In this document: piece by piece, positions 6,271 to 14,527 of the stretch
Layout of the letters: each line of letters begins with the position of its first letter
How positions within the stretch are numbered: position 1 is the stretch's first letter
From: a phage
Strand: one strand, 5' to 3'
DNA length: 64,000 bases
Sequence record: PV805632.1
Position numbers and translations under genes: made by a program
The notes under the pieces: model-generated
What the model was told of the DNA's origin: nothing
Seen by the model: only the letters and a program-made list of their open reading frames with translations
The model's database searches: none

Positions 6271-7488
6271 ATGCAATTACTTACTGCTCGCGAATATTTG
6301 AAAGTAGACATCGCTAATTCTTATGGTCTGGATAAGAAGACATGGGATGAACGTATTAGCTGGTTCGATGAGAACGAAGCTAACCTGCTTAATCTGGTAG
6401 ATGAAGCTGAAGAATCTGCACTGTTCTATGCAGGTGTAAACGCATGGAAAGATATGAAAGCTGGTAAGCCTATCGGTTATGCCGTAGCTCTGGATGCTAC
6501 ATCATCTGGTTTGCAGTTACTGGCTTGCCTGACTGGTGACCGTTCTGCTGCTGAACTGTGTAACGTAGTTAACTACATGGGAGAGAATGGTAAGCCATTA
6601 CGTCGTGATGCTTATACAGTTATCTATCACAAGATGCTGGACATCCTTGGTGAAGCATCCCGTATTAAACGTAGTGATACTAAGCAGGCAGTTATGACTG
6701 CATTCTATGGTTCAGAAGCTAAGCCTAAAGAAGTATTCGGTGAAGGTATCCGTCTCAAAACTTTTGAGAATGTAATGGAAACAGTTGCTAGTGGACCTTG
6801 GGCACTGAACAAGTTCTTACTGCAATGTGGTAACCCGGATGCTAACCGTTACGTATGGGTACTGCCTGACAACTTCCATGCTGTCATTAAGGTCATGGTT
6901 CCGGAAGTACAGACTGTTAACTTCTTAGGTAAGCCTTTCGACATCACCCGTATGGTTCAGGGTACTGAAGAGAAGACTCGTATGCTCTCTGCTAACATCA
7001 CCCACTCTATTGATGGGATGGTGGTACGTGAGATGCTGCGTCGCTGTAACTTCAACATGAACCAGGTGAACTATATTAAGTCCCTCTGTGAAGGAACCAG
7101 TGAGTATATGCTGGGTACTAGCGAGAATTACGATATGGTTAGTCAACTGTGGCATAACTATGAGAAATCAGGATTCCTGTCTACCCGTATCTTTGATTAT
7201 CTGGATTCTGACTCAATTAAACTGGTTGATACAGATGTAATCATGGCTATGCTTAATACCATGCCTAAGAAACCATTCCCTGTAATGACTGTACACGACT
7301 GCTTCCGTTGTCACCCTAACTATGGCAATGACTTGCGTCGTCAATACAATCAGATTCTGTCTGACATTGCTAAGAGTGATCTACTGGGCTTCATCCTGTC
7401 TCAGGTACTGGGGCAAGAGTTCTCTGCTGGTAAGCTGGATGACAGCCTCTGGCAGGACATTCTTGAAACAGACTATGCATTAAGTTAA
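6271..7488 (+). CDS. phage RNA polymerase II, catalytic subunit (N4 gp16-like, T7-like RNAP), 405 aa
   Basis: T7-RNAP-like motif A (ALDATSSGLQ), motif B (RSDTKQAVMTAFYG) and motif C (TVHDCF). Confidence 0.7.
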   Translation: MQLLTAREYLKVDIANSYGLDKKTWDERISWFDENEANLLNLVDEAEESALFYAGVNAWKDMKAGKPIGYAVALDATSSGLQLLACLTGDRSAAELCNVVNYMGENGKPLRRDAYTVIYHKMLDILGEASRIKRSDTKQAVMTAFYGSEAKPKEVFGEGIRLKTFENVMETVASGPWALNKFLLQCGNPDANRYVWVLPDNFHAVIKVMVPEVQTVNFLGKPFDITRMVQGTEEKTRMLSANITHSIDGMVVREMLRRCNFNMNQVNYIKSLCEGTSEYMLGTSENYDMVSQLWHNYEKSGFLSTRIFDYLDSDSIKLVDTDVIMAMLNTMPKKPFPVMTVHDCFRCHPNYGNDLRRQYNQILSDIAKSDLLGFILSQVLGQEFSAGKLDDSLWQDILETDYALS

Positions 7489-8687: not shown

Positions 8688-8717
8688 GACCTCCCTATTG
8701 AAGGGAGGTCTTTTTTT
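8688..8717 (+). terminator. intrinsic terminator GACCTCCC-loop-GGGAGGTC + TTTTTTT
   Basis: 8-bp stem and T7 run. Confidence 0.7.
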
Positions 8718-8742
8718 GACTTAAACAAACTGGAGCCAGGAA

Positions 8743-8931
8743 ATGTATAAAGAGATTGCATTCTTCTCGTTCTTGTTAGGTGGGTTAATTGGTGCAGGAA
8801 TTGTAGCTATTTCTAATAACTACTTTGGTTCTACTCCAAATTCTGTAACACAAACCCTCAAGCATGAATGTGAATTGAATATCCCTCGTAATCAAAGCTG
8901 CGTAATGCAGTTCGTACCGGAGAAGAAATGA
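8743..8931 (+). CDS. small membrane protein (62 aa)
   Basis: ORF track; N-terminal hydrophobic helix. Confidence 0.4.
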   Translation: MYKEIAFFSFLLGGLIGAGIVAISNNYFGSTPNSVTQTLKHECELNIPRNQSCVMQFVPEKK

Positions 8932-9188
8932 ATATTCATAACCTACGTTTGGTTGAAAGACTGTATGAAGAATACAACGACAACCGACAGCAATTGGCTA
9001 GTCTAAAAAAGTCCCCGCATATGGTGAAAGTAACCTTCTGTGATACAGATTTGGGGGTACAAGCTCGTGCAAGCATAATCCCTAAATTACTAGCATTTTA
9101 TCAAAAGAAAGTGGATGACTTAGAGAAACGCCTGAAGCATTTAGGAGTTGATCTATCTTTATTACCTGAAGAAGAGGAAGAAGAGTGA
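8928..9188 (+). CDS. hypothetical protein (86 aa)
   Basis: ORF track; overlap coupling. Confidence 0.45.
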   Translation: MNIHNLRLVERLYEEYNDNRQQLASLKKSPHMVKVTFCDTDLGVQARASIIPKLLAFYQKKVDDLEKRLKHLGVDLSLLPEEEEEE

Positions 9189-9370
9189 AACTTACTCAGT
9201 CCCAAGCAATTTTCCTTCGCATGGTTCAAGGTGGTTCTGCCACCAGCAACCGTAATAACAAAACCGCACAGTCTCTTAAGAAGCTAGGCTTAGTACAGTT
9301 CAATGCTGGTCTTGGGTGGTCATTAACCCCTACCGGTGTACTTCAACTCAACGAGTTAAAAGGTAACTAA
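9185..9370 (+). CDS. hypothetical protein (61 aa, GTG start)
   Basis: ORF track; GAGGAAGAAGA upstream. Confidence 0.4.
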   Translation: MKLTQSQAIFLRMVQGGSATSNRNNKTAQSLKKLGLVQFNAGLGWSLTPTGVLQLNELKGN

Positions 9371-9697
9371 ATGAAAACTTTAATTGCTGTTGTTCTAGTA
9401 GCTCTATCAGTTCTGTCATTCGGTGCTCAAGCATCCAGTCGTGCAACCTTGTTGGAAGCTGCTGCTGATTACAAAGCCAATGAGGGTAACTTTTTGAACC
9501 AGGGTTACTTCATGGGCATGGTTACCATGGCAGCAGAGGCAGGGGATAACTGTGTACCTGATGGTATAAAGTTAGGTCTCCTTTTTGACAAAGTGGCTTC
9601 TATTATTCTGTATGACCGAAAGGTTAATGCAGTAAAAAAACCATCAGACATGATTCTGTTAGCGATAGATACAGCGTATCCATGCGTTAAATCTTAA
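9371..9697 (+). CDS. secreted/periplasmic protein with signal peptide (108 aa)
   Basis: N-terminus MKTLIAVVLVALSVLSFGAQASS has signal-peptide features. Confidence 0.45.
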   Translation: MKTLIAVVLVALSVLSFGAQASSRATLLEAAADYKANEGNFLNQGYFMGMVTMAAEAGDNCVPDGIKLGLLFDKVASIILYDRKVNAVKKPSDMILLAIDTAYPCVKS

Positions 9698-9731
9698 TTA
9701 GTAATTCCATTAACTTTAGGAGAGTAAGTAA

Positions 9732-10784
9732 ATGGCGAGCATTGACTCCTTGACTGTATGTAATACACGTCAAGCCCGTAACTTTATTATCCGTGCCTTG
9801 CAAGCAGGTAACGTACCGTTCCTGACTTCATCACCGGGTATGGGTAAGTCTGCAATTATTCGTTCTATTGCAGAAGAATTTGGTATGAAGCTGATTGACC
9901 ATCGTCTGTCTACTTCTGCCCCGGAAGACTTATCTGGTCTACCATTCCGTAATGGTGACCGTGCAGAGTTTATTCCATTTGCTGACTTATTCCCTATCGA
10001 GGGTGACGAAGTACCAGAAGGCTATAATGGCTGGCTCCTGTTCCTTGATGAGTTCAACTCAGCTAAAAAAGAAGTAGTAGCTGCTGCATACAAACTGATT
10101 CTAGACCGTATGACCGGGCAGAAAAAACTTCACCCTAATGTGATGATTATCTGTGCCGGTAATAAAGCTACTGACCGTGCTATCGTTAACCCACTGGGTA
10201 CTGCAATGCAGTCTCGCGTTGTCCACTTCGAAATGGAACTTAACTTCGACATTTTTGTTGAAGACGTAATGATTCCTCAAGAATGGGATGAGCGTCTGGT
10301 TGCATTCTTACATGCTAACCCTGGTTATCTGCACGACTTCGACCCTGCCCATAAGAACAAAACATTCTGTTGTCCACGTACCTGGGACTTTGTTAACAAA
10401 GACCTCAAGAACCGACCAGAAGGTGCTTTGCCTGATGAAGATTCTATCTACTATGCAGGCCACGTTACTGCTGGTAAGGCTACAGAGTTTGTTCAGTTCA
10501 CTCAGGTATACAATCGTATGATTACGATTGATAAGGTAGTCAAAGACCCTTTGGGCTGTGCACTACCAGAGGATAATAACCTGTGCTGGGCTACCGTTAA
10601 CCACCTGGCTAACAAGACCACTGAAGATAACTTCGTTGATGTACTTAAGTACATTGAACGCTTTAAAACGTTCACCCATAAGATTCTGTACTTCCGTACA
10701 GCAGGCAAAGCATTACCAGAAATTCAGGCTACCCCTGAATGGCGTAAAGCTGCTGCCAATATATCTCGTTACATTCACGGATAA
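9732..10784 (+). CDS. MoxR-like AAA+ ATPase (350 aa)
   Basis: Walker A SPGMGKSA, Walker B LLFLDEF; paired with VWA gene downstream. Confidence 0.6.
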   Translation: MASIDSLTVCNTRQARNFIIRALQAGNVPFLTSSPGMGKSAIIRSIAEEFGMKLIDHRLSTSAPEDLSGLPFRNGDRAEFIPFADLFPIEGDEVPEGYNGWLLFLDEFNSAKKEVVAAAYKLILDRMTGQKKLHPNVMIICAGNKATDRAIVNPLGTAMQSRVVHFEMELNFDIFVEDVMIPQEWDERLVAFLHANPGYLHDFDPAHKNKTFCCPRTWDFVNKDLKNRPEGALPDEDSIYYAGHVTAGKATEFVQFTQVYNRMITIDKVVKDPLGCALPEDNNLCWATVNHLANKTTEDNFVDVLKYIERFKTFTHKILYFRTAGKALPEIQATPEWRKAAANISRYIHG

Positions 10785-10791
10785 TCACAAC

Positions 10792-11967
10792 ATGAACCAG
10801 ATACCTCAGCACACACTTAGTGATGAACAACTCATGCGTGAGTATGACCGTATTCAGGCGCAGGCATTTCTTGGACGCAGTGCAGCGTTTTTTGGTTCAT
10901 TGCTGTGTAGTCTTAAGTTCTCATGGAAACGTGAGGGCTGTCCCACTGCATGTACCGATGGGATAGAACTCCATTTCAACCCAGACTTCTTTATCTGGAT
11001 GTGCCCTGATGCAAGAGAAACGGTGCTAATGCACGAACTCTGGCATGTGGCATACCTACATGGCATCCGTTGTGGAAGCCGTGACCCAGAAGTCTGGAAC
11101 CAGGCATGTGACCACTTCATTAACCTTCAGTTAGAGGAAGATGGTTACAAGTTCACTGGTATCGACGAAGGCATTTGCAAAGACCCTCAATATAAAGGAT
11201 GGGTCGAAGAAGACATCTACGATGACCTGATGAAGAACCCTCAGAAAAGGCAGAAGCCGTCAGGGGGTGCTGGAGCAGGTCTTGCTGGCGACATGAAAGC
11301 TCCCTCTTCGGGGCAGTCCCAGGGTGCTGTTGTCAACAACGTAGTACGTGCAATGCAAAGCCAGAAGATGGCTGGTGGAATGATGCCCGGTAAAGGTGCT
11401 GGTCGTATGGAAGAGGTTATTACCCAATTCCTTAAACCAGTGGTTCCTTGGCAGGAAGTCCTGCTGAACTTCTTTACCGACATTGATGGTACACACTATA
11501 CGTGGGCCAGACCTAACCGTCGTTTCACTGACGTCTATCTACCTTCTCTGGAAGATGATGAAGGACGCTTACGACACTTAGCCTACTTTGAGGATGTATC
11601 TGGTTCTATTAGTAGTGCTGACTCTCTGCGTTTTAACTCAGAGGTTGCCTACGTTAAGAGCCAGTTCAATCCTAAGAAGATGACCCTAATTACCTTCGAC
11701 GATATTATCCAAGAAGAAATAGACATCACTGAAGAAGATACTTTTGAAGAGATTAAGATTACTGGTCGTGGTGGTACAAACCTTGAACCAGTGCGTGAAT
11801 GGATCATTAAGAATAAGCCAACCGCTGCAATCATATTCTCCGATATGTATGTTCGTCCTATGGAAGAATTGCCATTTGATATCCCTATCATCTGGTGTGT
11901 TCTGAATAATCCTAATGCTACCGTACCTTTTGGGGAGGTAGTTCATATCCCTAAAGGAATGAAATAA
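10792..11967 (+). CDS. VWA-domain protein with N-terminal HExxH metallopeptidase-like motif (392 aa)
   Basis: HELWH motif; MIDAS-like DVSGSISS; ORF-track ORF 10558..11967 trimmed to first ATG after the upstream stop. Confidence 0.55.
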   Translation: MNQIPQHTLSDEQLMREYDRIQAQAFLGRSAAFFGSLLCSLKFSWKREGCPTACTDGIELHFNPDFFIWMCPDARETVLMHELWHVAYLHGIRCGSRDPEVWNQACDHFINLQLEEDGYKFTGIDEGICKDPQYKGWVEEDIYDDLMKNPQKRQKPSGGAGAGLAGDMKAPSSGQSQGAVVNNVVRAMQSQKMAGGMMPGKGAGRMEEVITQFLKPVVPWQEVLLNFFTDIDGTHYTWARPNRRFTDVYLPSLEDDEGRLRHLAYFEDVSGSISSADSLRFNSEVAYVKSQFNPKKMTLITFDDIIQEEIDITEEDTFEEIKITGRGGTNLEPVREWIIKNKPTAAIIFSDMYVRPMEELPFDIPIIWCVLNNPNATVPFGEVVHIPKGMK

Positions 11968-12473
11968 TGATTGTTAATGGTAATTCTCTATACCGTTCAT
12001 CTCAATTGCTGGATGTCCCAGACCGTAAGGTATCCGAGCATGGTGTAAGCTATGGATTAGGCGAAGCTGGTTATGATATTCGTATCAAACAAGACATTAC
12101 CTTCTATCGCTTATTTGGGTTAATTCCAATGGTGAAAATCGTTGATGGAAAACAAGTATCACGCCATCTCGGTAAATTCGCATTGGCTTCAGCAATTGAG
12201 AAATTCAACATGTCTCCGTCCTGTGTAGCTATCGTTCACGATAAGTCCACATGGGCAAGACGTGCATTATCTGTGTTCAATACCGTAATAGAACCAGGAT
12301 GGAAAGGGTATCTTACCCTCGAACTGGTCTATCATGGTCGTAAGAAACTGCATATCCCGGCTGGTGCTGGGATAGCTCAAGTATTATTTCATCTGGTTCA
12401 AGAGCCTGCTAATTACAACGGCAAGTATCAGAACCAGGAGGACAAACCAGTAGCTGCAAGAAGCAGTAAATAA
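11967..12473 (+). CDS. dCTP deaminase/dUTPase-family protein (168 aa)
   Basis: weak match to the dUTPase-fold motifs (GYDIRI, VIEPGWKGYLTLEL); motif-level only. Confidence 0.4.
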   Translation: MIVNGNSLYRSSQLLDVPDRKVSEHGVSYGLGEAGYDIRIKQDITFYRLFGLIPMVKIVDGKQVSRHLGKFALASAIEKFNMSPSCVAIVHDKSTWARRALSVFNTVIEPGWKGYLTLELVYHGRKKLHIPAGAGIAQVLFHLVQEPANYNGKYQNQEDKPVAARSSK

Positions 12474-12482
12474 GGAAACAAC

Positions 12483-12683
12483 ATGTCAGTATTTCAAGTA
12501 ACTCCTGTTGACAGTACCCAACGTAAAACTATTGTTGCAACTAACGTAGTAGATGTAGATGAAACTCCGGCTGGTGCTGTAGTTCATCTGATTGATGGGC
12601 GAACTGTAACTGTAAAAGAAAGCTATCGTTCAGTACGTGGTTACGTCCGTAAAGCTTTAACTGCTGACTCTGACGCAGAGTAA
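12483..12683 (+). CDS. hypothetical protein (66 aa)
   Basis: ORF track. Confidence 0.45.
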   Translation: MSVFQVTPVDSTQRKTIVATNVVDVDETPAGAVVHLIDGRTVTVKESYRSVRGYVRKALTADSDAE

Positions 12684-12695
12684 GTAGCTGCCTAA

Positions 12696-12722
12696 ATAGC
12701 CCAGCATAGCTGGGCTATTTGT
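12696..12722 (+). terminator. hairpin ATAGCCCAGC-ATA-GCTGGGCTAT + TTT
   Basis: 10-bp stem, short T-run. Confidence 0.5.
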
Positions 12723-12756
12723 GAAGAAACTAACTCAACCCCACATAGGAACCATC

Positions 12757-13017
12757 ATGGAATCTTTAGCAGCAATTCTCGTTCTGTTATTTGCACTTGC
12801 TATATACCTTATCCCTACTATTATTGCTTTTGCACGAGGCCATGCCTCTAAGTGGGGCATTGGTGTACTCAATATCGTATTAGGCTGGTCTTTAGTCTTC
12901 TGGGTAGTAGCACTGATTTGGTCACTGTCTAATAAAGGACAGTCTCAGACTACAATCGTTAACGTTGGTAGTGGTAACCAGTACAACGTGTCTCAAACGA
13001 GCCAGTCTGATAAGTAA
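12757..13017 (+). CDS. superinfection-immunity (T4 Imm-like) membrane protein (86 aa)
   Basis: PTIIAFARGH...LNIVLGWSLVFWVVALIWSL resembles the Imm family signature; start moved to ATG 12757 downstream of the hairpin, AGGAA RBS. Confidence 0.45.
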   Translation: MESLAAILVLLFALAIYLIPTIIAFARGHASKWGIGVLNIVLGWSLVFWVVALIWSLSNKGQSQTTIVNVGSGNQYNVSQTSQSDK

Positions 13018-13091
13018 CTAACTTAAGCATCATTGTATAGTGGTGCTTGTGGAAGTTGCTTCCAGCTCATTACTTATCCATCTCCTAATCC

Positions 13092-13118
13092 AAGCCCACC
13101 TAACCCGTGGGCTTTTTT
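13092..13118 (+). terminator. intrinsic terminator AAGCCCAC-loop-GTGGGCTT + TTTTAATT
   Basis: 8-bp stem plus T-run. Confidence 0.7.
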
Positions 13119-13139: not shown

Positions 13140-13583
13140 ATGCGTATCCCATTCCTAAGAAAAAGGGAACGAAATCCTGTTCTTTATAATAAAGGCATAG
13201 AGGATGAGTACGAACTCAACCGTAAAGCTCGTTCCTACGCAACAAAATTATTCATGGGGACTAGCAACCCTAATAGATTACTGGACTTTGTTTTCGAACA
13301 AGTCTTTATCATATACAGCTTAGCTATGTCTGCTGGTTCACAAGAAGTAAGTGATAAGGCAAGATATGCTCTCTGTATGCTCCGGAAAGAGTACGAAGCC
13401 ATCCTGTATGAAGACTTGTACTCCTTTAAGAAAGAAACCGCTGTAGCGTGTTCTGTGGCTCTTACTGAAGGTATAGCAGTATTACAAGAACTGCCCCGTA
13501 GTGAGTTTAAACTGGTATATGTCCAGGCCAGGAGAATTACAGAAAACCGTAGTGGTATTACCAACTATCTAAGGTCATTCTAA
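13140..13583 (+). CDS. hypothetical protein (147 aa)
   Basis: ORF track. Confidence 0.45.
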   Translation: MRIPFLRKRERNPVLYNKGIEDEYELNRKARSYATKLFMGTSNPNRLLDFVFEQVFIIYSLAMSAGSQEVSDKARYALCMLRKEYEAILYEDLYSFKKETAVACSVALTEGIAVLQELPRSEFKLVYVQARRITENRSGITNYLRSF

Positions 13584-14527
13584 TGATTAAGGCAACTGTC
13601 ATTGCAGATTCCGTTCATCATGTAACGGGTACTCGTATTACTACCTTTGAATTGGTTTATCCTCGATTCATTCACAGTGAGTTTATGACCCACCGTGTAT
13701 TCAACCGCAATGCTTCAAGTAGTCGTGCTATCCCTACTTCTAAGTTTATTGAACAGGTTCGTAATGAACCAGTAATGCCAAGTCACTGGGGCAAGAACCA
13801 GAAAGGTATGCAGGCATTTGAAGAATTGTCTGAAGACCAACGTAGTGATGCAACCTTTATCTGGGAACAGGCTGCATCCAGTGCTGCTACCTATGCAGAA
13901 ATGCTACGTCGTGGACAAGTACATAAGCAGATTGTTAACCGCATTCTGGAACCATTCACACATATCCGTGTAGTGGTAACTTCAACTAGCTGGGCTAACT
14001 TCTACGGCTTACGTGACCATGAGGATGCCCAACCAGAAATTCGTTTACTGGCTCAGGCCATGAAGAAAGCTCATGAAGAATCTGTTCCGCAAAAGCTCAA
14101 GAAAGGTGACTGGCATCTGCCTTATATTCGCAGGATTGATTGTATTAACGCTTACGATCATTGCAAATATCAACGAGTTACTTGTGATAAACCAAGTGAT
14201 GAAGAAGTTTTAGGCTTACTGCTTAAAGTCTCTGCTGCTCGTTGTGCTCGTGCCTCCTATAACAACTTTGAAGGCAAGCCATCTACTATTAGTGATGACC
14301 TTGCTCTCTTTGCTAAGTTGGTAGAGAAACAACCAATACATGCATCACCTACTGAGCATCAAGCTACCCCTATGGACTTCAGTACCAAGTTTGTTAACAA
14401 CCAGAACCCATTAACCTGGGAACAAGGTGTTACCTCTATGGACCGTGAAGGTAAGCTGTATTCTGGTAACTTAATGGATTTCATCCAATTCCGTAAACTA
14501 ATCCCCGGAGAAACAATTACAGAATGA
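13583..14527 (+). CDS. possible flavin-dependent thymidylate synthase (ThyX-like), 314 aa
   Basis: HRVFNRNASSSR resembles the ThyX RHR-x7-S signature; longer than typical ThyX, so tentative. Confidence 0.35.
   Translation: MIKATVIADSVHHVTGTRITTFELVYPRFIHSEFMTHRVFNRNASSSRAIPTSKFIEQVRNEPVMPSHWGKNQKGMQAFEELSEDQRSDATFIWEQAASSAATYAEMLRRGQVHKQIVNRILEPFTHIRVVVTSTSWANFYGLRDHEDAQPEIRLLAQAMKKAHEESVPQKLKKGDWHLPYIRRIDCINAYDHCKYQRVTCDKPSDEEVLGLLLKVSAARCARASYNNFEGKPSTISDDLALFAKLVEKQPIHASPTEHQATPMDFSTKFVNNQNPLTWEQGVTSMDREGKLYSGNLMDFIQFRKLIPGETITE

Follow-up and report, generated by a model that had tools for sequence, protein, structure and literature searches.

Protein machines that combine an AAA+ ATPase with a VWA domain bearing a metal-ion-dependent adhesion site (MIDAS) are the closest described systems to the gene pair gp24 and gp25, which is addressed here in a stretch of phage DNA (the window, meaning the whole 64,000 nucleotides analysed of sequence record PV805632.1). 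In midasin (Rea1/MDN1), a client is gripped through the metal site of the MIDAS domain, which cooperates with an AAA ring of the same class. The bacterial systems NorQ-NorD, CbbQ-CbbO, RavA-ViaA and CobS-CobT resemble the phage pair in placing a separate ATPase of the MoxR/AAA_5 class beside a VWA partner with a MIDAS; in the bacterial partners the HExxH zincin domain is missing, and their role is that of an activase or cofactor-insertion factor and not of a protease. In CLCA proteins, a VWA domain accompanies a zincin protease, and in FtsH an HExxH zincin is coupled to an AAA+ motor. The same two-gene architecture as in the window has been described for group 2.2 jumbo phages (Iyer et al. 2021, PMC7824862), and the Pfam families are the same, with phages JP4 and K64-1 carrying the ATPase followed by a protein with DUF2201_N and DUF2201 domains.

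In the window, gp24 and gp25 encode an AAA+ ATPase and a protein with a zincin-like and a VWA domain. They lie at 9732-11967, adjacent on the same strand and 7 nucleotides apart, where an initial annotation of the sequence had placed them. We propose, with a probability of roughly 0.4, that they form a two-part, ATP-driven protein remodeller and protease of the middle phase of infection, whose client would be an intracellular, non-virion protein. The gene pair, its domain content and its core status have already been published, and near-identical sequences are deposited; nothing in the window is new in this respect.

The locus differs from each of these systems. The jumbo-phage versions show ~25-30% identity, are longer (441 and 474 amino acids), and are flanked by virion structural genes. 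Modules on the plasmid pSYSA and on Burkholderia/Cupriavidus megaplasmids have full-length homologues of both partners, the same gene order and both DUF2201 domains, but share only ~27-29% identity with gp25, and those of betaproteobacterial plasmids insert a third gene of ~305 amino acids. Around these modules are plasmid backbone, type IV secretion or toxin-antitoxin genes in place of phage replication genes. CLCA1 and FtsH serve as analogies only, and nothing indicates that their protease parts share an ancestor with that of gp25: CLCA1 is secreted, self-cleaving and eukaryotic, whereas FtsH is a single membrane-bound polypeptide of a different AAA clade.

Predicted domains and motifs of gp24 and gp25

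The features of the two genes are as follows.

9732..10784, plus strand: gp24 homologue, AAA+ ATPase, 350 amino acids (aa), 39.5 kDa, from its open reading frame (ORF) and translation
9828..9851, plus strand: Walker A, SSPGMGKS, aa 33-40, with G36, G38 and K39 invariant in the 40-sequence alignment
10035..10052, plus strand: Walker B, LLFLDE, aa 102-107, with D106 and E107 invariant in the same alignment
10161..10379, plus strand: N144, R162 and R216 (PRTW motif), all invariant in the same alignment
10785..10791, plus strand: spacer of 7 nucleotides (nt) from the end of gp24 to the start of gp25, lacking an obvious Shine-Dalgarno sequence
10792..11967, plus strand: gp25 homologue, zincin-like and VWA domains, 391 aa, 44.4 kDa, from Pfam and an AlphaFold2 model
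11032..11112, plus strand: putative zinc site, HELWH (aa 81-85, at 11032-11046), H90 and D107
11239..11316, plus strand: glycine-rich low-complexity linker, about aa 150-175, ending in the conserved D167, with the lowest predicted local distance difference test (pLDDT) scores of the model (65-72)
11593..11844, plus strand: predicted MIDAS site, D268-V-S270-G-S272, T329 and D351, with DVSGS (aa 268-272) at 11593-11607

The gp24 alignment comprises 40 homologues, from phages and plasmids, and the Walker B residues D106 and E107 are present in nearly all homologues. Judged by position relative to the Walker motifs, N144 would be sensor 1, R162 the arginine finger and R216 sensor 2, and gp24 is predicted to hold every catalytic motif of a working MoxR/midasin-class AAA+ ATPase. 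The protein matches the generic Pfam AAA family (2.7e-6, 28.3 bits, cut-off 21.2) and the PHROG ATPase family phrog_1297 (E=9e-134); it scores under the cut-offs of AAA_5 (18.2 vs 22 bits) and bpMoxR (13.8 vs 27 bits) and has no AAA_3 match. Members of the family do match at E<=1e-3, with AAA_5 found in 24 of the 40, AAA_3 (MoxR proper) in 13 and bpMoxR in 7. Additionally, the gp24 profile aligns over its full length (318 columns, hhalign probability 100%, E=8e-63) with the ATPase of Synechocystis pSYSA that PGAP names 'MoxR family ATPase', and which adjoins its own DUF2201 gene. The naming as MoxR-class rests on family-level evidence, because the gp24 of the window misses the AAA_5 and bpMoxR thresholds, and we class gp24, from these comparisons, as a MoxR-class AAA+ ATPase that is not a member of MoxR proper. 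The initial annotation had called it a MoxR-like AAA+ ATPase; the AAA+ motifs and, at family level, the MoxR class stand, but the expected AAA_5 match does not hold for the protein in the window.

The best PDB match of the gp24 profile was midasin, followed by Clp/Hsp104, RFC, CbbQ and NorQ. Several AAA modules together give midasin its E-value of 1e-25; the best of them reaches 30.9 bits by itself, no better than ClpB, and the match shows class and not special closeness because repeated modules are added together. A conserved stretch after Walker A (R-L-S-x-x-x-P-x-D-L-x-G-x-P) aligns with the matching stretch of midasin, which is suggestive only. The likeness extends to gp25, since AAA modules of midasin are the best PDB match of the gp24 family and its MIDAS domain is the best Foldseek match of gp25. 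However, midasin is eukaryotic and lacks a peptidase domain, its six AAA modules being fused within one polypeptide of ~4,900 aa, and the relation to gp24 and gp25 reads as one of shared class, not of orthology.

The partner, gp25, matches Pfam DUF2201_N ('putative metallopeptidase domain') at aa 18-254 (E=1e-54, 186.5 bits, cut-off 23.2) and then DUF2201 ('VWA-like domain') at aa 264-387 (E=1.4e-34, 119.3 bits, cut-off 26.4). Both lie above the curated thresholds and place gp25 in a family that numbers 31,916 cluster representatives at E<=1e-3 and 13,753 at E<=1e-30. Conservation was counted in the gp25 of the window together with 143 of the best-scoring representatives, each from a separate 50%-identity cluster (n=144). 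At the putative zinc site, H81 is kept in 142 sequences, E82 in 140, H85 in 143, H90 in 140 and D107 in all 144, with H90 and D107 as candidates for the third zinc ligand. The five MIDAS residues (D268, S270, S272, T329 and D351) are kept in 143-144 of the 144, and the predicted site is complete. Both sites are therefore under strong purifying selection, and this favours a peptidase with catalytic activity and a binding site that depends on metal in gp25.

The AlphaFold2 model of gp25, built from a 127-sequence alignment, has a mean pLDDT of 87.6, as against 34.8 from the single sequence. The model has the VWA fold: its best PDB match in Foldseek is the MIDAS domain of human midasin, its second the VWA domain of CLCA1, and the VWA domain of NorD (from NorQ-NorD complexes) was also recovered. 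A search of PDB with the single gp25 sequence gave no match. For the N-terminal domain, Foldseek and profile searches returned weak matches to selecase (a minigluzincin, or minimal zincin) and to M48 peptidases, and the zincin assignment is based on the Pfam family, the motif and these weak matches (selecase Foldseek E=0.05; M48 and BepA E of ~0.7). The initial annotation had described a VWA/HExxH metallopeptidase-like protein with an HELWH zinc-binding motif and a MIDAS-like DVSGS, and had suggested profile searches and structure prediction as checks. With both now run, its view of gp25 is borne out, and the DVSGS was understated, as part of a site with all five residues.

Between the two domains runs the glycine-rich linker, whose length is very variable across the family, with the acidic residue kept in >70% of representatives. 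Its context is 'LAGDM' in the window and 'D-x-H-x-x-W' in other branches. The acidic residue might serve as a ligand of the MIDAS within the protein, as a switch of the zinc site or as a point of self-cleavage.

Homologues of gp25 are labelled 'HNH endonuclease' in phrog_1314 and in many RefSeq records (e.g., NC_070869, NC_027399, PQ330092). We reject this label as a propagated misannotation because, among Pfam matches at E<=0.1, gp25 has no HNH family, only DUF2201_N and DUF2201, which cover the whole protein. The wrong label probably spread from real HNH homing endonuclease genes inserted between gp24 and gp25, as in phage G7C, where the 477-nt gene gp24.1 (locus L001, 7057-7533) occupies the junction that is a mere 7-nt spacer in the window. 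Extra DNA is also found within the matched region of Mimir124, U1G and NAN33P5, with HNH genes annotated there in Mimir124 and U1G.

The gp24 ATG is preceded by AGGAG at 8 nt, a good ribosome-binding site. In the program-made ORF list, gp25 starts at a GTG at 10558, inside gp24; because of the conserved N-terminus and the homologue alignments, we place the true start at the ATG at 10792, which would give a protein beginning MNQIPQ. With this start and the short spacer, gp24 and gp25 may be translationally coupled.

Orthology, linkage and genomic context

By its sequence, the window is assigned to the G7C-like Gamaleyavirus group (Schitoviridae, N4-like phages). The DNA of the 2.2-kb interval is 93-96% identical to that of ~56 deposited Escherichia and Shigella Gamaleyavirus phages, and the proteins are 98% (gp24) and 97% (gp25) identical to those of G7C. 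The G7C RefSeq record names gp24 an ATPase and gp25 a VWA-like domain-containing protein, both noted as similar to N4 gp24/gp25. Gene order is common to G7C and the window (gp24, gp25, the dCTP deaminase gp26, then the ThyX gp30), and the pair keeps its position between RNAP2 (gp16) and the dCTP deaminase (gp26), the two genes being orthologues of N4 gp24 and gp25. Zhao et al. (2009) already named the same genes putative AAA ATPase and vWFA protein (PMC2784036). Chan et al. (2014) later listed gp24 ('unknown') and gp25 ('vWFA domain') among 14 N4-like core genes, and in N4 both are middle transcripts (PMC4193335).

The two genes are almost always adjacent and co-inherited. Of 80 IMG/VR loci retrieved through their gp25 similarity (28-98% identity), 75 have a gp24 homologue upstream in the same orientation, and the remaining 5 have <3.2 kb of upstream sequence. 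The pairing had been said to mirror cellular MoxR-VWA systems, and this conserved adjacency and co-orientation agrees with it. The pair is adjacent in cyanophage S-TIM5 and in the jumbo phages JP4 and K64-1, and less tight in rV5-like phages and Bacillus phage G, with ~4 kb to the ATPase. An 'anti-sigma factor' gene just upstream of the rV5-like homologue was considered as a hidden ATPase and rejected, having no gp24 similarity and no Pfam match.

Homologues of gp25 were found by tblastn in 695 phage records, and further in 94 plasmid records. Its fold matches in BFVD include Bacillus phage PBS1, a crAss-like virus and, distantly, ORF892 of Acidianus two-tailed virus (ATV). On pSYSA, the pair lies among toxin-antitoxin and DUF262 genes. 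Megaplasmids of Burkholderia, Cupriavidus and Variovorax carry a triad of the ATPase, a ~305-aa hypothetical protein (weak DUF3150 match) and the VWA-like protein, and on a conjugative Burkholderia pseudomallei plasmid the triad stands directly upstream of type IV secretion genes.

L098, 4889-8158: megaplasmid triad
L099, 4939-8161: megaplasmid triad
L102, 4005-7293: megaplasmid triad

A neighbour census, in which all ORFs within 5 kb of gp25 were clustered across 96 loci, returned DNA polymerase A (38 loci), RNAP2 (34), ThyX (26), SF1 helicase (26), dCTP deaminase (23), DUF5906 primase-helicase (13) and DNA ligase (9) as recurrent neighbours. A match to the dCTP deaminase gene dcd lies downstream of gp25 on the same strand in 36 of the 96, at a distance of <=20 nt in 19. 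Most of the 96 loci are N4-like, and the synteny is therefore not independent evidence, the neighbour counts being largely inherited. A set of 16 loci, picked because their ATPases diverge most from gp24 (27-32% identity), has 115 neighbouring proteins and shows a similar picture. Their Pfam matches include DNA polymerase A (11), DUF5906 (8), Nmad5 (7), 3'-5' exonuclease (6), VapE-like (6) and PD-(D/E)XK nuclease (2). No recognisable capsid, portal, terminase or tail family was among the 22 Pfam families matched in this set, a weak negative because many of the neighbouring ORFs have no Pfam match.

In a phage lineage outside the N4-like group, the ATPase and gp25-like genes alternate with two paralogous genes of ~220-300 aa; in many of the 16 divergent loci a gene of ~220 aa lies between the two, and in several a paralogue of it follows the pair. 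Half of the interleaved-gene proteins (10/20) match Pfam Nmad5 (best E=5e-10), which is known from thymidine hypermodification cassettes (PMC9476957). Nearly all of the Nmad5-like proteins start M-x-[ST]-V-[RQS]-[ML], and an acidic L-[LM]-G-[DE] closes most of them. Downstream, most of these loci carry DUF5906 primase-helicase and DNA polymerase A genes. A relationship between the phage Nmad5-like gene and the third gene of the plasmid triads was considered and rejected, with no detectable similarity.

L064, 7345-8007 and 9327-10136: Nmad5-interleaved genes
L069, L077, L078, L079, L083, L085, L088, L091 and L096: Nmad5-interleaved genes, likewise

Pyrimidine genes recur near the pair in unrelated phages, namely dCTP deaminase and ThyX in N4-like phages, ThyX in S-TIM5 and the thymidylate synthase ThyA in JP4/K64-1, a recurrence that may be no more than a common block of early or middle genes would give.

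Window, 11967-12473 and 13583-14527: pyrimidine metabolism genes
L010, 7961-8890: pyrimidine metabolism gene
L012, 7633-8304: pyrimidine metabolism gene
L104, 8167-9096: pyrimidine metabolism gene

Proposed mechanism and rival explanations

By analogy with midasin, CbbQ-CbbO, NorQ-NorD and RavA-ViaA, gp24 would assemble into a ring. As in the characterised MoxR-VWA systems, gp25 would dock on this ring via its VWA domain, the metal ion of its MIDAS would capture an acidic residue of the client protein, and ATP hydrolysis by gp24 would pull on or unfold the client. To this we add a step in which the zincin domain of gp25 would then cut the exposed client segment, making the pair a split, adaptor-guided AAA+ protease. 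Going by genomic context, this machine would be active during the middle phase, alongside the genes of DNA replication and pyrimidine metabolism. We lean towards a client that is an intracellular protein, of phage or host, and not a part of the virion, because the pair is expressed among the middle genes and has replication and nucleotide genes as neighbours, and because the module also occurs on conjugative plasmids and pSYSA, which build no virions.

Several points weigh against this proposal. The sub-threshold scores of gp24, the summed E-value of its midasin match and the weak matches of the zincin domain have been given above, as have the inherited synteny of the N4-like loci and the many neighbouring ORFs that match no Pfam family. 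In the literature, including CRISPRi-ART and transposon screens, no experiment or functional data were found for any homologue, in keeping with the initial annotation, which had called the function in infection unknown. The remaining points are virion genes close to the pair. In the window itself, a Hoc-like head decoration gene (gp17) lies 1.1 kb upstream; in JP4 and K64-1, virion structural genes stand on both sides; in S-TIM5, an Hsp20 gene is just upstream and a gene annotated as a virion structural protein is downstream; and in roseophages, virion protein genes (a second structural module) are near gp24/gp25 (Chan et al. 2014, PMC4193335).

These neighbours carry the rival that survives best, in which gp24 and gp25 would be a virion-assembly chaperone and maturation protease that folds, assembles and trims structural proteins. 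Virion assembly with peptidolytic processing was in fact proposed for the MoxR and metallopeptidase-vWA pair of group 2.2 jumbo phages by Iyer et al. (2021), on the basis that MoxR-VWA proteins were reported to be needed for tail development of Acidianus two-tailed virus (PMC7824862), and the recovery of ATV ORF892 as a distant structural match of gp25 accords with this. One plasmid module, moreover, adjoins type IV secretion genes, which likewise specify an assembly system. However, the N4-like pair consists of middle genes in a replication and nucleotide block, tightly linked to dCTP deaminase and at a long distance from the late structural cluster, the Pfam-matched neighbours of the 16 divergent loci are without recognisable virion families, and full-length homologous modules sit on megaplasmids and pSYSA. 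The N4-like and plasmid contexts thus do not favour a virion-assembly role, which we regard as unlikely.

A second rival keeps the mechanism of the remodelling protease, but commits it to a host client: the MIDAS would recognise a specific host protein, gp24 would unfold it and gp25 would cleave it, in a takeover or counter-defence activity of benefit to any invading DNA element. Host-protein remodelling and counter-defence had been put forward as possible functions in the initial annotation. The sharing of the module between unrelated phages and conjugative or mobilisable plasmids would suit such a role, as would the toxin-antitoxin and DUF262 genes around it on pSYSA and its expression in the middle, not the late, phase. 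The pair is core in N4-like phages of hosts from several bacterial classes, which would need a very conserved host target, whereas counter-defence genes are usually accessory and variable. In PADLOC, gp25 has no match and gp24 only a marginal, partial match to DolB (15.3 bits, E=0.002), and no experiment linking the pair to any defence system was found in the literature. A host-directed role is accordingly rather improbable, and membership of a known anti-phage defence system is rejected, with no significant PADLOC match.

A third rival removes the cutting step, and takes the pair as a non-proteolytic activase or cofactor-insertion chaperone, like NorQ-NorD, CbbQ-CbbO or CobS-CobT, which would load or release a metal or an inhibitor on a client in pyrimidine metabolism or DNA modification, with the HExxH domain binding metal or client without cutting. 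Many characterised MoxR-VWA pairs work in this manner (the bacterial systems and midasin are listed in PMC7159879), and NorQ, the NorD VWA domain and CbbQ were recovered as relatives. The recurrent pyrimidine genes near the pair (dcd among them) and the interleaved Nmad5-family genes are in line with such a client. Yet the HExxH glutamate E82 is kept in 140 of the 144 sequences, as expected of an active peptidase, no thymidylate or dCTP deaminase gene is annotated near the modules of plasmids and pSYSA, and no single candidate client enzyme is common to all pair-carrying lineages. This is the least credible of the three, and very unlikely.

Returning to the remodelling protease with an intracellular client, a broader form of the proposal would take the pair as the phage form of a very widespread class of two-component AAA+ proteases on mobile DNA, a class spanning N4-like, rV5-like and jumbo phages, cyanophages, conjugative megaplasmids and pSYSA. 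The MIDAS would select a client in replication or in pyrimidine/DNA modification, and the zincin would process it; the Nmad5-family proteins with the acidic LLGD(D/E) C-terminus would be candidate clients or adaptors, and D167 an internal latency ligand. In its entirety, this broader form is speculative and we think it improbable.

Surroundings of the pair and the meaning of its client

The features around the two genes in the window are as follows.

8688..13114, plus strand: probable transcription unit holding gp24 and gp25, from a terminator scan
11965..11969, plus strand: TAATG, the gp25 stop overlapping the start of the dCTP deaminase gene
11967-12473: dCTP deaminase gene, directly 3' of gp25

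The scan placed terminator-like hairpins at the edges of the unit, at 8688-8710 and 13092-13114, and two weaker terminator-like matches within it, both inside the gp25 coding sequence. Stem-loops are annotated in the G7C record at places corresponding to the hairpins of the window. On these signals, gp24 and gp25 are probably co-transcribed in one unit. The unit also has a 108-aa ORF at 9371-9697, which corresponds to G7C gp17.3 and has two cysteines and a hydrophobic N-terminus resembling, by eye, a signal peptide, and a 98-aa membrane protein at 12721-13017, noted in the G7C record as similar to the T4-type Imm superinfection immunity protein. Further upstream, the 405-aa ORF at 6271-7488 encodes gp16, the RNAP2 subunit of the middle RNA polymerase of the phage, with 98% identity to its G7C counterpart. 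Scans of the whole window for tRNA and Rfam families found nothing.

A scan of genome contigs with narrow patterns returned 7 loci, of which five were N4-like clusters. In NZ_CP110465 (L100), the Acinetobacter baumannii element pRBH2-3, genes for a phage-type RNA polymerase, an AAA ATPase, an HNH protein and a VWA-like protein stand in N4-like order. The element is deposited as a non-mobilisable plasmid, its length of 75,126 bp is typical of an N4-like phage genome, and it is probably a phage, not a plasmid. An N4-like cluster of gp24, gp25, dCTP deaminase and ThyX was also seen inside long bacterial contigs, in Mesorhizobium yinganensis contig2 (L004, 727 kb) and in a contig of a Roseococcus metagenome-assembled genome (L003, 297 kb). 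Because N4-like phages are usually regarded as strictly lytic, these clusters would be either an integrated element or a mis-assembly.

The two genes are 2 of the 14 common to all N4-like phages, and are near the last of this core set without an assigned role, while the module to which they belong extends over phages, plasmids and cells, in sequence clusters numbering tens of thousands. Identifying the client would account for a part of the infection that annotation has so far failed to explain, and would show how a MoxR-class motor, a MIDAS adaptor and a zinc peptidase cooperate, a combination that has thus far had no biochemical characterisation.

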